62,155 nucleotides of DNA, taken from a virus (taxonomy: Duplodnaviria > Caudoviricetes). Location of the stretch: positions 1 through 62,155 of the IMG/VR virus record IMGVR_UViG_3300037424_001375. One strand, written 5' to 3'. The translations under genes were made by a program, and so were the position numbers. Of this stretch, positions 44,482-62,155 are shown in pieces. The notes under the pieces are model-generated. The model was not told the DNA's origin and searched no databases. It saw nothing but the letters and a program-made list of their open reading frames with translations. Each line of letters opens with the position of its first letter. Positions within the stretch are counted from its first letter, which is position 1.

Positions 44482-44672
44482 CGACGCTCTGCGCGTGGTG
44501 CCGCGATCGTCGCGCCGCCCAGGGCCTCCCGCCGCGCGTCATCCACCGGGACGATCGACCGCCGCGCGAGTTCGTGTCGCACGGGCTCTGCCCTTTGTGC
44601 GAGGCGGAACTGCTGGGCGTGCCGACGGCGCTCCTCGAGACGAGCGACGAGCGCGAGCAGGTGAGGCCATGA
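44478..44672 (+). CDS. Small Cys-motif protein
   Basis: CAWC...SHGLCPLC. Confidence 0.6.
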   Translation: MTTLCAWCRDRRAAQGLPPRVIHRDDRPPREFVSHGLCPLCEAELLGVPTALLETSDEREQVRP

Positions 44673-44944
44673 GCCCCTGCGAGCGCGTCGGCGCCGCGAT
44701 CGTCTGCTCGCGTGCCCCGCGCGTCCGGTTCTGCGCGTACTGCCGCGCGCCCCACGCGAAGCTCTGCGACCACGTCCTGCCGAACGGGCGGACCTGCGAC
44801 AAACCGCTTTGCCTTACGCACGCGCACCACGTCGCGCCCGATCTCGACTACTGCCCCGCGCACAAGGTGTTCCATCTGCCGTCTCCGATCGCGCGATCAG
44901 AGGATACGGCGGCGGGCGGCGGGGGCGGTAGGCAATCCGCTTGA
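44669..44944 (+). CDS. Small zinc-finger protein
   Basis: CAYC, LCD, TCDKPLC..H, YCPAH. Confidence 0.65.
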   Translation: MSPCERVGAAIVCSRAPRVRFCAYCRAPHAKLCDHVLPNGRTCDKPLCLTHAHHVAPDLDYCPAHKVFHLPSPIARSEDTAAGGGGGRQSA

Positions 44945-59468: not shown

Positions 59469-59670
59469 CGGTCGAGGCGGCGCTCGGCGGGTCGGTCGAG
59501 GCGCAGGGCGATCCGGCGTTCGAGCAGAGCTGCCACGCGTACGGCCATGTGCCGGCGTGCTCGACGTGGATCGCGCATCTGCGGCGGCTGGATCGTGAGC
59601 GCACGGCGGCCGGCGGGGAAGCCGAACTGAAGGCGGCGTGCGGCTACTGGAGCCGGGTGAGCGCGCAGCG

Positions 59671-60069
59671 ATGAGCCCTTGGGAACACGCCAAGCTCGGC
59701 GGGGAAACCTGCGGCCACTGCGGCGCACGCATCCCCGAAGCGTCGCCGCTCCTCGCGCGCTACGTCGCCGACGCGACGATCCGCAAGGTGCGCTGTCCGG
59801 CGTGTGCCAGGGTGCCGGTGAACCAGGCCGAGCTCGACGCCGCGCCCGCGCGTCCACCGGACCCGCCGCCGCAAGACTGGGATCTCACGATGCGGCGCCG
59901 GCGGCCGGTTGAGCGCGTGTCGCCCTTACGCCCACCGGTGCCGCTCGCGGACATCGCGAAGGATCTCCCCTTCGACGGGCGCATGGCGGCGGCGGGGAAA
60001 GACGACGACTGGCTCGGCTCGCGCGCGTGGACGCCGGGCGAGCGGGAGCCTGGATGCGACGATGAGTGA
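59671..60069 (+). CDS. Hypothetical zinc-binding protein
   Basis: CGHCG...CPAC; DGRMAAAG. Confidence 0.55.
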   Translation: MSPWEHAKLGGETCGHCGARIPEASPLLARYVADATIRKVRCPACARVPVNQAELDAAPARPPDPPPQDWDLTMRRRRPVERVSPLRPPVPLADIAKDLPFDGRMAAAGKDDDWLGSRAWTPGEREPGCDDE

Positions 60070-62020
60070 CAGCCTCAGCGGTGGTCGCGTGAAGCGCCCG
60101 GTCGAGCAGTGGGCGGGCTGCTACGACGGCGGCTGGGCCGGGCTGATCACGGCCGAGTCGTTCTCGCATCCGGCCAAAGCGGCGCGCGGGCTGTTGGTGC
60201 GGATCTTCGACGAGCTGTTCGCGATGGGCGCCCTCGAGCGCGGCGACCTCGTGTGCGATCCGTTCGGCGGCATCGGGACGACGGCTGTGATTGGGGCGAG
60301 TCGTGGCGTGAAAGTTATCAGTTGTGAATTAGAGGAGAAGTTCTGTATACTAACTCGCAGGAACCTGTTACTACAGGCGAAGGGTTGGTGTACCTGTGGA
60401 GAAGATGGCGCGGCGTATCTGCGATGGTTGCGGCTCGGTCTACCGGATGAGGCCAGCACACGTTCGAGCGAAGATTCGGGCCGGAATGAAACGCTGGTTT
60501 TGTTCGAGGGCATGTTGGACGAGAAGCTTGAATCAGACCAGGCGCGGAGAGGCCAACCCAAACTGGAAAGGCGGCCGATACATCAGGCAGGACGGGTACG
60601 TCGAGATTCGAGTAGCCGGGAAGAGGAAGATGGAACACATTCATGCGATGGAGGTCCATCTTGGCCGCAGGATGAGAGAGAAGGAGGTTGTTCACCACAA
60701 GAACGGGGATCGTCAGGACAACCGTCTCTGCAATCTCGAAGTGATGCTGCTGTCAGATCACATGAGGCATCACCATCCGAACGGGGTGATTCGACGAGTC
60801 CGATCTGCGCGATGCCGGATCTGTCGGCGGTCCTTTACAACGGCGGCGGTGAATCAGCAGACGTGCGGCCGAGTGTCGTGCCGCCGGGAGAAGATGCGCC
60901 AGTATTGTGCGAAGTACCGAGCGAAAAAGGGGCCGGCGGCGTTGGTGGATGTGACGTGCCGCATCTGCGGCCGAACCTTTCGCGGGAAGAAGCGATCGAG
61001 CGTGAGCGGGCGGACCTGCTCAGCCGAGTGCTACAAGGCGTACCAACGCGAATATCTGCGGGCCTATCGTGCCCATCTTGTTGCCTCCCGGTAGTTCCAT
61101 TTCCGCTTCCATTTCAGGGTGACAGCCGGCGGCTGCGCGCGTGCATCGGGCCGGCGCTGGCGGAAGCTGTCGTGAGCAGCCCGCCATTTCAGGCGTCGTT
61201 GAACAGCGGCGAAACGGCGGCCGACATGAAGGCGCGCTGGCCAAACGCACGACTAGGGGGCTCAGGGGGGCAAGAGTACGGCACCACCCCCGGCCAGCTC
61301 GGCGCGATGAAGGCGGGCGACGTCGCAGCCGTCGTGTCAAGTCCGCCGTACTCCGGCATCGCCTCCGGCGCGGGCGGGTTGAACACGCAGCCGCCGAAGC
61401 ACGCCGGCCAGCAGGGCGGGCGGTCAGCCGAGAGCGCGAGCCAGGCGACCGATCAGCGGTACGGCGAGAGCGCCGGCCAACTGGCGCGGCTGCCGGAGGG
61501 CGCGGTCGCCGATGCCCTCGTGAGTAGCCCACCGTACGAAGGGTGCCCGGTTGTTGACGCGCCTCGTTGCGGGATCGGTCCCGCATTCAAGGCAGGATTA
61601 CGCCCTAAAGGGGCTTCCTTAAACAGCGATGGGACACCACGCGATGGTTACGGCGAGACAAGTGGGCAACTTGGATATACACGCGGCGAGACGTTCTGGT
61701 CGGCCGCTGCCGAGATCGTCCGCGAGTCCCACGCCATCCTCAAGCCCGGCGGCTCCGCCGTCTGGATCGTCAAGTCGTTCGTCCGCAACAAGGCCATCGT
61801 GGACTTCCCCGGCGACTGGCGGCGACTCTGCGAGGCGTGCGGCTTCGAGCTGGTCAAGGAAGTCCACGCCATGCTCGTGGCCGAGGAGCGCGTGTCGCAC
61901 CTGTGGGACGGCGAGCGCGTGACGAAGCGCGAGCGCAAGAGCTTCTTTCGCCGGCTGGCTGAGTCGAAGGGCAGTCCACGGATCGACTTCGAAACCGTGC
62001 TGTTCATGGTGAAACGATGA
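60062..62020 (+). CDS. Amino (N4-C/N6-A) DNA methyltransferase-like protein with a large insertion and three SPP(Y/F) motifs
   Basis: HPAK, DPFGGIGTT, CELE, GDSR, SSPPF/SSPPY/SSPPY, ILKPGG. Confidence 0.85.
   Translation: MSDSLSGGRVKRPVEQWAGCYDGGWAGLITAESFSHPAKAARGLLVRIFDELFAMGALERGDLVCDPFGGIGTTAVIGASRGVKVISCELEEKFCILTRRNLLLQAKGWCTCGEDGAAYLRWLRLGLPDEASTRSSEDSGRNETLVLFEGMLDEKLESDQARRGQPKLERRPIHQAGRVRRDSSSREEEDGTHSCDGGPSWPQDEREGGCSPQERGSSGQPSLQSRSDAAVRSHEASPSERGDSTSPICAMPDLSAVLYNGGGESADVRPSVVPPGEDAPVLCEVPSEKGAGGVGGCDVPHLRPNLSREEAIERERADLLSRVLQGVPTRISAGLSCPSCCLPVVPFPLPFQGDSRRLRACIGPALAEAVVSSPPFQASLNSGETAADMKARWPNARLGGSGGQEYGTTPGQLGAMKAGDVAAVVSSPPYSGIASGAGGLNTQPPKHAGQQGGRSAESASQATDQRYGESAGQLARLPEGAVADALVSSPPYEGCPVVDAPRCGIGPAFKAGLRPKGASLNSDGTPRDGYGETSGQLGYTRGETFWSAAAEIVRESHAILKPGGSAVWIVKSFVRNKAIVDFPGDWRRLCEACGFELVKEVHAMLVAEERVSHLWDGERVTKRERKSFFRRLAESKGSPRIDFETVLFMVKR
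60405..61094 (+). CDS. HNH homing-type endonuclease with Cys motifs, nested in another frame within the MTase
   Basis: NPNWKGG, DGY, EH..ME..LGR..EVVHHKNGDRQDNRLCNL; several CxxC..CS..C motifs; GGAG before ATG 60405. Confidence 0.88.
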   Translation: MARRICDGCGSVYRMRPAHVRAKIRAGMKRWFCSRACWTRSLNQTRRGEANPNWKGGRYIRQDGYVEIRVAGKRKMEHIHAMEVHLGRRMREKEVVHHKNGDRQDNRLCNLEVMLLSDHMRHHHPNGVIRRVRSARCRICRRSFTTAAVNQQTCGRVSCRREKMRQYCAKYRAKKGPAALVDVTCRICGRTFRGKKRSSVSGRTCSAECYKAYQREYLRAYRAHLVASR

Positions 62021-62028
62021 CCCGCCGC

Positions 62029-62155
62029 CGCCCCGCGCTCTGGCTCACGAAGCCCGTGCGCCGTCGTCACCCCGAGCGCACCGAGCAAGCGCACATCGTC
62101 CGGCTGCTGCGCACGGTCGGCGCCGAGGTGTGGACGCTCGGCACGACGCGCCGCC
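62029..62155. repeat. Terminal direct repeat, copy 2 (circular assembly overlap)
   Basis: Matches 1-127. Confidence 0.95.

Follow-up and report, generated by a model that had tools for sequence, protein, structure and literature searches.

The window analysed here is the whole stretch of 62,155 nucleotides of the IMG/VR virus record IMGVR_UViG_3300037424_001375 (Duplodnaviria; Caudoviricetes), a complete record with direct terminal repeats and a guanine-plus-cytosine (GC) content of 68%. Near its end lies the gene of a DNA methyltransferase (MTase), which is interrupted in frame by an insert that hides a complete HNH endonuclease gene in another frame of the same strand. The first ATG of the MTase open reading frame (ORF) overlaps the stop codon of the preceding ORF. 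Its product matched the Pfam family N6_N4_Mtase (PF01555) with residues 36-96 (E = 2.1e-9; 38.1 bits, cut-off 26.7). The S-adenosylmethionine (SAM)-binding motif I, DPFGGIG, is located near the N-terminus and is followed downstream by three SPP(F/Y) modules; motif I and a (S/D)PP(Y/F) motif IV, the characteristics of N6/N4 amino DNA methyltransferases, are both present.

The insert was delimited by an alignment with the insert-free homologues P0004, P0011, P0034 and P0025 (Table 1). It is located between the WxxxG motif and the P.P..QGDSR strand, after the helix following motif I and before the conserved QGDSR strand, and the reading frame of the host gene is kept. The original prediction, which was made from the letters of the window, had claimed that the MTase frame stays open across an insertion of about 230 codons with lower GC content. 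This was borne out by the ORF calls and by the GC profile, which drops from 0.71-0.75 to a level of 0.53-0.59 over the interval from about 60275 to 60800. The GC content of third codon positions (GC3) is 0.92 for MTase residues 1-74, 0.49 for residues 75-113 and 0.51 for the insert.

A clear HNH nuclease in the +1 frame of the same interval had also been claimed, and Pfam HNH_3 was indeed detected in the nested ORF (E = 3.7e-9; 36.5 bits, cut-off 24.8). The encoded protein carries CxxC zinc-finger-like motifs at its N- and C-terminus. Apart from about 17 nt that precede the HNH ORF and about 1-4 nt that follow it, the whole insert is part of this ORF, and the third frame of the interval is crowded with stops. 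The conservation that the host-frame peptide seems to show in the middle of the insert reflects the HNH frame, as in L-E-[RG]-[RG], which corresponds to N-W-K-G-G one base earlier. The idea that a frameshift joins the N-terminus of the MTase to the HNH was dropped, as stops occur in the HNH frame 9-17 codons upstream of the GTG.

When 50,697 phage records were searched with tblastn, the best matches of the window HNH were themselves hidden HNHs (45% identity over residues 8-128; E = 8e-21 to 3e-20). They underlie features annotated as 'DNA methylase' in the phages Bipolar, ShiLan and others, and the ShiLan match (44602-44940; E = 3e-20) lies inside gp65. A further HNH match was found inside a Cylindrospermopsis phage methylase. 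The window MTase itself gave no tblastn match in this phage collection. As described in two papers, the ShiLan domain is a stop-free insert in the mycobacteriophage methylase gp65, which hides an out-of-frame HNH (PMC9957025, PMC11855218).

The open frame of the window locus was examined by a permutation test, in which the HNH protein and its codon usage were held, synonymous codons were permuted in 20,000 trials and stops in the MTase frame were counted. At the window locus (W), 0 stops were present and 6.3 were expected (P(0) = 1e-4 and 3.5e-4 in two runs); a shuffle of the codon order of the HNH gave a mean of 8.5 stops (P = 5e-5). None of the 38 T-ending HNH codons precedes AA, AG or GA, though 52 following codons begin in this way. 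The test was also applied to metagenomic loci, which are named L062, L063 and L064 and are described below. L062 has 0 host-frame stops with 6.4 expected (P(0) = 2e-4), and L064 has 0 with 7.6 expected and was stop-free in 0 of 20,000 permutations. Stops in the MTase frame of homologous inserts, which the original prediction had named as evidence against itself, are thus absent from all three complete loci, W, L062 and L064, and the other alternative frame of the same inserts contains 9-11 stops. The open MTase frame is not a product of chance, and stops have been selected against in three diverged DNA loci.

The same test on ShiLan-type inserts yielded an expectation of 1.3-1.8 host-frame stops (P(0) = 0.035-0.19). 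Because so few stops are expected with the ShiLan-type offset, in comparison to 6-8 here, the window lineage provides much stronger evidence of selection. These values also bear on the explanation that the MTase gene is dead and that high GC content has left its frame open by chance. Many long spurious ORFs do occur in high-GC DNA, but the insert has a GC content of only 60%, 6-8 stops were expected where three loci have none, and the other frame is not open. Furthermore, the catalytic motifs are invariant in insert-bearing proteins, as seen for the core MTase motifs in an alignment of six of them. A dead gene is extremely improbable, and the enzyme is probably active as a methylase.

Table 1. 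Features of the methyltransferase gene, its insert and the nested HNH gene in the window.
Feature	Position	Strand	Remark
DNA methyltransferase (MTase) ORF, 652 aa	60062..62020	+	ATG 60062 to stop 62020, no internal stop
Recoded, probably co-converted 5' flank, MTase residues 75-113	60284..60400	+	Identity pattern, codon usage
Sigma-70-like promoter candidate, TTGTGA-18 nt-TATACT	60322..60351	+	Inside MTase coding sequence, about 45 nt upstream of HNH start
Shine-Dalgarno-like AAGGGTTGGTG, then GTG start (60396-60398) of HNH gene	60380..60398	+	Conserved
Host-frame CxC (C110, C112)	60389..60397	+	Replaces W-[E/A]-A-M-G of insert-free relatives
Nested HNH endonuclease ORF, 232 aa	60396..61094	+	GTG 60396 to TAG 61094, +1 frame of MTase
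Insert relative to insert-free homologues, about 228 codons, borders +/- a few codons	60401..61084	+	Protein alignment
Part of insert predicted to be disordered in MTase frame, residues 142-298, pLDDT below 50	60485..60955	+	AlphaFold2
HNH_3 catalytic core, HNH residues 81-123	60636..60764	+	HH...N...N...H..H present
Host-frame CPSCC (C337, C340), CxxC knuckle-like	61070..61084	+	Just before insert end
3' flank LPVVPFPLPF, leading to conserved QGDSR strand	61085..61114	+	Differs from RPQPVMV of insert-free relatives
HNH stop codon TAG, read as parts of Pro-Val in MTase frame	61092..61094	+	

Relatives of the gene were collected from several sources. A protein search with the MTase returned 1411 homologues at E <= 0.001, and five of the 13 that were retrieved have an open-frame insert in the corresponding position. 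Further family members came from a profile search of 1.84 billion representative proteins. In a census of 232 stored family proteins by regular expressions, both landmark motifs were recognised in 185; the remaining 47 were left unclassified (19 without a recognisable motif I, 28 without a recognisable GDSR landmark). The short, insert-free spacing was found in 147 of the 185, an HNH-type insert in 16, and other, mostly Cys-rich inserts nearby in 12, whereas proteins with a spacing of 100-110 residues were counted only. All 16 insert-bearing proteins have an open frame and carry the insert in the same loop. A protein search with the host-frame insert alone returned the query itself as the sole match.

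On the level of DNA, a search of metagenome contigs with the junction motifs led to three loci confirmed from 123 candidate stretches. Each of them has an HNH_3 ORF in the +1 frame of the host. The HNH of L062 is 56% identical to that of the window, the HNH of the partial locus L063 84%, and that of L064 40%, with a different C-terminus; HH..N..N..H..H is conserved in the HNH-frame alignment of W, L062 and L064. No further locus was obtained when viral contigs were scanned with the HNH protein, the 5' junction pattern, the 3' junction pattern and the alignment A4, and genome contigs scanned with alignment A4 and the 3' junction pattern gave no match. In IMG/VR, 58 loci were found by full-length alignment, 22 of them at family level, and a tblastn comparison that covered all 60 stored loci detected no nested HNH in these 22.

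The distribution is patchy: the closest relatives are free of the insert, and the sequence flanking it is mosaic. The nearest insert-free relative of the window MTase, P0011, shares 89% identity over residues 1-74 and 92% over residues 540-652, but only 41% over residues 75-113. In this segment, directly before the insert, four of five insert-bearing relatives share 56-64% of their residues with the window MTase, and the fifth, P0107, shares 38%. The segment also contains TTA, ATA and CTA, codons that are rare in the phage: across 34 further long ORFs, they account for 0.6%, 1.0% and 2.1% of the codons for Leu or Ile. Identity, GC3 and codon usage together give residues 75-113 the look of a co-conversion tract from a donor with lower GC content, which fits homing.

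These data are also relevant to the possibility that the HNH is not, or no longer, a homing enzyme and acts as a partner of the methylase, cutting unmethylated DNA of competitors or the host, with the nesting ensuring co-inheritance. An HNH and a methylase are a plausible functional pair, the HNHs of the element have had time to diverge to 40-56% identity, and co-option of the hidden nuclease has been raised as a possibility (PMC11855218). A partnership of this kind is nevertheless improbable in view of the short spacing in 147 of 185 proteins, the 22 family-level IMG/VR loci without nested HNH, the insert-free closest relative and the low-GC flank resembling a co-conversion tract. In addition, a single clade of ShiLan-bearing methylases was rejected (PMC9957025).

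The 3' half of the insert is matched by contigs of 151 nt from the runs of two other studies (soil and freshwater metagenomes, X2 and X3). X2 shows 0 differences over 60857-61007 and X3 two differences over 60936-61083; just past the insert (61128-61189), another X2 contig has six differences and two gaps. This is a weak hint of recent spread, and the contigs may derive from different organisms. No joint across the insert was present among the matching contigs, which are DNA and hence silent on RNA. A further observation concerns an IMG/VR relative (L015:1320-1580), in which an HNH-like match (34% identity, E = 7e-7) is located about 1.4 kb upstream of an insert-free MTase homologue. This arrangement recalls the free-standing HNH beside the methylases of the phages Sashimi and Tiff81 (PMC11855218).

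Neither an intron nor an intein could be recognised. An Rfam scan of 59800-61500 at E <= 10 yielded only a chance match to a long non-coding RNA, and no room is left for a ribozyme core, because the HNH ORF fills the insert. The host-frame peptide of the insert matched no Pfam family at E <= 1, Hint and intein families included. The insert ends with ...SCPSCC/LPVV, lacking a His-Asn end and a fixed Cys, Ser or Thr after it, and the end residues vary among the relatives. Hint blocks and terminal residues of inteins as well as the features of group I and group II introns are therefore missing, in agreement with the earlier statement that no intein ends or intron core can be seen.

This makes it very improbable that the insert is excised in the end, be it by a self-splicing RNA that escaped recognition, by non-canonical protein splicing or by proteolysis. 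Like an intein, it begins Cys-rich and is situated in a conserved gene, and group I introns often carry HNH genes (PMC11855218). Besides the negative Rfam and Hint results, the missing room for a ribozyme and the lack of intein ends, the middle of the insert is predicted to be disordered in the host frame (see below). Moreover, an intron needs no stop-free host frame, yet stops have been selected against, and the same negative result concerning introns and inteins was reached for ShiLan (PMC11855218).

The recoded 5' flank appears to carry expression signals of the HNH gene. A promoter scan found one site in comparison to 0.3 expected, which is the sigma-70-like candidate in Table 1. Its -10 hexamer TATACT and GAATTAGA are invariant in all four loci of the DNA alignment. 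The ATA codon within TATACT encodes Ile96, which is present in five of six insert-bearing rows; the commonest residues at this position in 64 insert-free rows are A, E, D, G, L and N. Use of this promoter is predicted from the conserved sequence. Further downstream, the block AAAGGnTGGTGTACyTGTGGnGAA is conserved in the four loci and includes a Shine-Dalgarno-like AAGG/GGTG together with the GTG start. The original prediction had provided the HNH gene with its own ribosome-binding site, and a candidate is present; however, it is the AAGG/GGTG at 60380-60390 and not a GGAG 3 nt before an ATG. Likewise, the start common to the relatives is GTG 60396 and not ATG 60405, because L062 has no ATG nearby.

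In the host frame, the ends of the insert are marked by cysteines, and C110-T-C112 and C337-P-S-C340-C were found exactly at 60389-60397 and 61070-61084, where they had been predicted. All 16 insert-bearing proteins and L064 have the 3' CxxC, and 15 of the 16 have the 5' CxC (invariant in the six sequences of the first alignment). These residues are specific for the element: in the 64 insert-free rows, Cys is not among the six commonest residues at position 110 and occurs in only four at position 112. The HNH residues encoded over the second 3' Cys differ among three loci (L-V, S-A or R-A), and because of this variation the conservation at this position belongs to the host frame. P0107 and P0125 retain the CxC, though the next residue is His instead of Gly. 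The sequence CPxCG may resemble a rubredoxin-type knuckle.

AlphaFold2 models were calculated for P0001 (70 aligned sequences) and P0129 (59 aligned sequences, 16 of them insert-bearing). For P0001, the predicted local distance difference test (pLDDT) score is 93-97 around C110/C112, 80 around C337/C340 and 94-95 just after. The P0129 model reaches a pLDDT of 95 at the 5' pair and 94 at the 3' pair, with beta bridges at 102, 244 and 251, a long helix at 109-146 and disorder at 154-237. In the models, beta bridges lie beside both Cys motifs. The earlier description of the insert as non-globular in the MTase frame agrees with this picture of a disordered middle and confident ends. A Foldseek comparison with the PDB gave only weak matches to methyltransferase folds (best E = 5.6e-3, none <= 0.001).

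Taken together, the locus is best explained as a ShiLan-type hidden HNH homing element in a different family of phage MTases, at a different site and in a different frame, a reading to which we assign a probability of about 0.75. The insert, which measures about 0.7 kb and has a length divisible by three, would occupy a surface loop of the MTase between the helix after motif I and the QGDSR strand. One frame encodes the complete HNH_3 endonuclease, whose expression probably depends on signals of its own, namely the promoter-like box, the Shine-Dalgarno-like box and the GTG. As the MTase frame is kept stop-free, the enzyme would be translated straight through, without RNA or protein splicing. 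About 160 residues in the middle would form a disordered loop and the ends a short structured stalk, with CxC...CxxC at its base; the four element-borne cysteines probably bind zinc and hold the ends of the loop together. The nuclease most likely cuts insert-free alleles, and repair would copy the element along with about 100 nt of recoded 5' flank. At the level of sequence comparison, the original idea that the HNH is tolerated without splicing while the MTase is translated through the loop is favoured by the selection against stops, the 16 open-frame proteins, the absence of Rfam and Hint matches and the structure models.

Several points weigh against this interpretation or parts of it. The 16 proteins are open by construction, because they are products of gene callers, and split forms would be missed. 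A search with MTase residues 60-230 for shorter and possibly split forms revealed none among 213 candidates, but it is insensitive, and split forms may still exist. Only three extra DNA loci were available, one of them partial, and among the four lineages W and L063 are close. The promoter site is a match to the consensus only. With regard to the cysteines, P0128 has no CxC at the usual place and instead a C-L-C eight residues later, and a conserved R-A of the HNH protein is encoded over the first 3' Cys. At the 5' end, the CxC codons share nucleotides with the Shine-Dalgarno-like box and with the GTG at which the HNH gene starts, and TGT encodes both cysteines in the four loci, which makes constraint on the nucleotides a live alternative for the 5' pair.

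It could be concluded from the latter points that the four cysteines do not form a zinc clasp and are by-products, of the HNH start signals at the 5' end and of the HNH tail or constraint on the DNA at the 3' end, with the loop being tolerated on the protein surface. TGG TGT ACy TGT GGn is conserved in the four loci including synonymous sites, the GTG forms parts of C112 and G113, and the inserts of ShiLan and Cr-LKS3 show no such Cys bracket in their host frames. We nevertheless consider this explanation less likely than not. The start context must differ in P0107 and P0125, which keep the CxC before His, and the second 3' Cys is invariant in the 16 proteins and L064 despite the varying HNH residues and the different HNH C-terminus of L064. 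In addition, both motifs are modelled with high confidence and next to each other's beta bridges. For the zinc clasp of the original prediction, nearly invariant and element-specific cysteines are opposed by the overlap of the 5' pair with the HNH start signals and by P0128; as a prediction from sequences and models, we regard it as somewhat better than even.

More tentatively, and with chances slightly short of even, the element may carry a portable kit for tolerance and expression of its own, encoded in part by the host frame. In this kit, the zinc-binding clasp with short helices would pin both ends of the loop of about 230 residues to the surface of the MTase, and the recoded exon would supply promoter, Shine-Dalgarno sequence and start. 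If this is true, the kit is an evolved, element-encoded alternative to RNA or protein splicing. The lineage could then re-evolve stop-free overprinting wherever it lands, since the ShiLan-type HNH is found in a different methylase family, site and frame.

Other Cys-rich inserts occur in the family. P0139, P0161, P0179, P0187, P0195, P0202, P0208, P0225, P0226 and P0231 carry a different one of 60-130 residues, with CxCxG...WCPxC or ICPxC...PH[RH][YF]xGN, which lies a little closer to the N-terminus, within the helix that follows ELE.KF. Its sequence suggests a native zinc domain and not the shadow of an HNH. P0132 and P0193 have yet another insert at that earlier site. A native Cys-rich domain as the ancestor of the clasp was considered and dropped, as these inserts lie within the preceding helix.

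Downstream of the insert, the MTase has three tandem modules (61169-61680), each with VSSPP(F/Y), a variable loop and YGxxxGQLG. The number of modules differs widely among the homologues, from two to roughly ten or more (e.g. P0012, 939 aa). A second patch of low GC content (61550-61700; 0.58 in comparison to about 0.70-0.76 around it) lies within the variable loop of the third module and suggests further mosaicism within the gene. Directly upstream of the MTase gene, a small ORF (59638-60069, 143 aa) with two CxxC pairs showed weak zinc-ribbon matches in Pfam under the cut-off (E = 0.01-0.03); its stop codon is the one overlapping the MTase start. The next ORF (62017-62155) overlaps the MTase stop (ATGA) and runs off the end of the record. 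Because the record has terminal repeats, this ORF may continue at the start of the window.

Homing endonuclease genes are textbook residents of introns and inteins. Inteins with a homing endonuclease resemble the element of the window in being inserted in frame at a conserved site; they are translated with the host protein and mobile by homing, as is proposed for the window element. The window insert differs from them by the missing Hint domain and terminal His-Asn plus Cys/Ser/Thr, and splicing is neither needed nor predicted. Unlike in inteins, the nuclease is not part of the host polypeptide, because the HNH is encoded in another frame. Group I introns with HNH ORFs, such as those of I-HmuI and I-PfoP3I, share with it the interruption of a phage gene by an HNH and, probably, the co-conversion of the flanking exon, whereas the window insert has no ribozyme core and its host frame is under selection to stay open. 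In Aeh1 nrdA/mobE, a free-standing homing endonuclease gene splits the host gene into two polypeptides. There, too, a nuclease gene is located in a coding gene without intron or intein and is self-expressed, as predicted for the HNH of the window, but the host gene of the window is a single open frame.

A second hidden nuclease is known from Pacc40 gp60, where an AP2/HNH-like protein of 160 aa is nested in a divergent helicase-methylase (PMC11855218). By its description, it belongs to a different nuclease lineage and resembles the window in that the hidden layout recurs in unrelated methylases at other sites.

The closest counterpart is the ShiLan domain. Its HNH has a GTG start 18 bp into the insert and a stop in the last four bases (PMC11855218), and the domain is described as patchily distributed, predicted to loop out and without intron or intein features (PMC9957025, PMC11855218). 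The window element agrees in its in-frame, stop-free insertion into a methylase, in a complete HNH, flanked by zinc fingers, that is encoded on the same strand in a different frame, in the GTG a few codons into the insert and the stop at its very end, in the lack of a splicing signature, in the predicted looping-out of the insert and in the patchy occurrence. For ShiLan, the target sequence is described as duplicated where the insert begins; no such duplication is evident in the alignment of the window MTase with insert-free homologues. ShiLan has, in addition, an annotated free-standing HNH, gp64 (L002:331-687), directly upstream of gp65.

The differences are equally clear. In ShiLan gp65 and Cr-LKS3 g59 the methylase motif DPPY comes first, whereas in the window FxGxG comes first and SPPY is repeated. 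The insertion site in the methylase differs as well, and the HNH frame is +1 relative to the host in the window and +2 in ShiLan gp65 and Cr-LKS3 g59. Since host family, site and frame offset all differ, the window contains a variant and not the same element. No ribosome-binding site was detected for the ShiLan HNH, and leaderless initiation was proposed (PMC11855218), whereas the window has conserved Shine-Dalgarno-like and promoter-like boxes. A Cys bracket in the host frame is present in the window lineage; around the other nested ORFs that were inspected, in the host frames of ShiLan and Cr-LKS3, none is visible. The accessible part of PMC9957025 contains neither 'cysteine' nor 'zinc', and the cysteines mentioned in that of PMC11855218 are intein residues and those of HNH zinc fingers, not a host-frame clasp; the supplements and the repository survey of the latter paper lie outside this scope and may list the MTase family of the window.

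The original prediction had presented the arrangement as a third strategy besides introns and inteins. This is not new, as it has been published for ShiLan (PMC9957025, PMC11855218), whose HNH is homologous. The principle is in print; the window differs in the methylase family, the site, the frame, the cysteines and the signals in the flank. The proposal made for ShiLan, that the host protein is read through the element, rested on one methylase family in which few stops were expected anyway. Such hidden nucleases go unannotated because gene callers report only the methylase. In the window, the same HNH lineage uses overprinting in an unrelated methylase and another frame, together with two predicted adaptations that do not appear in the accessible parts of the ShiLan papers, namely a Cys clasp in the host frame and expression signals within recoded host codons.

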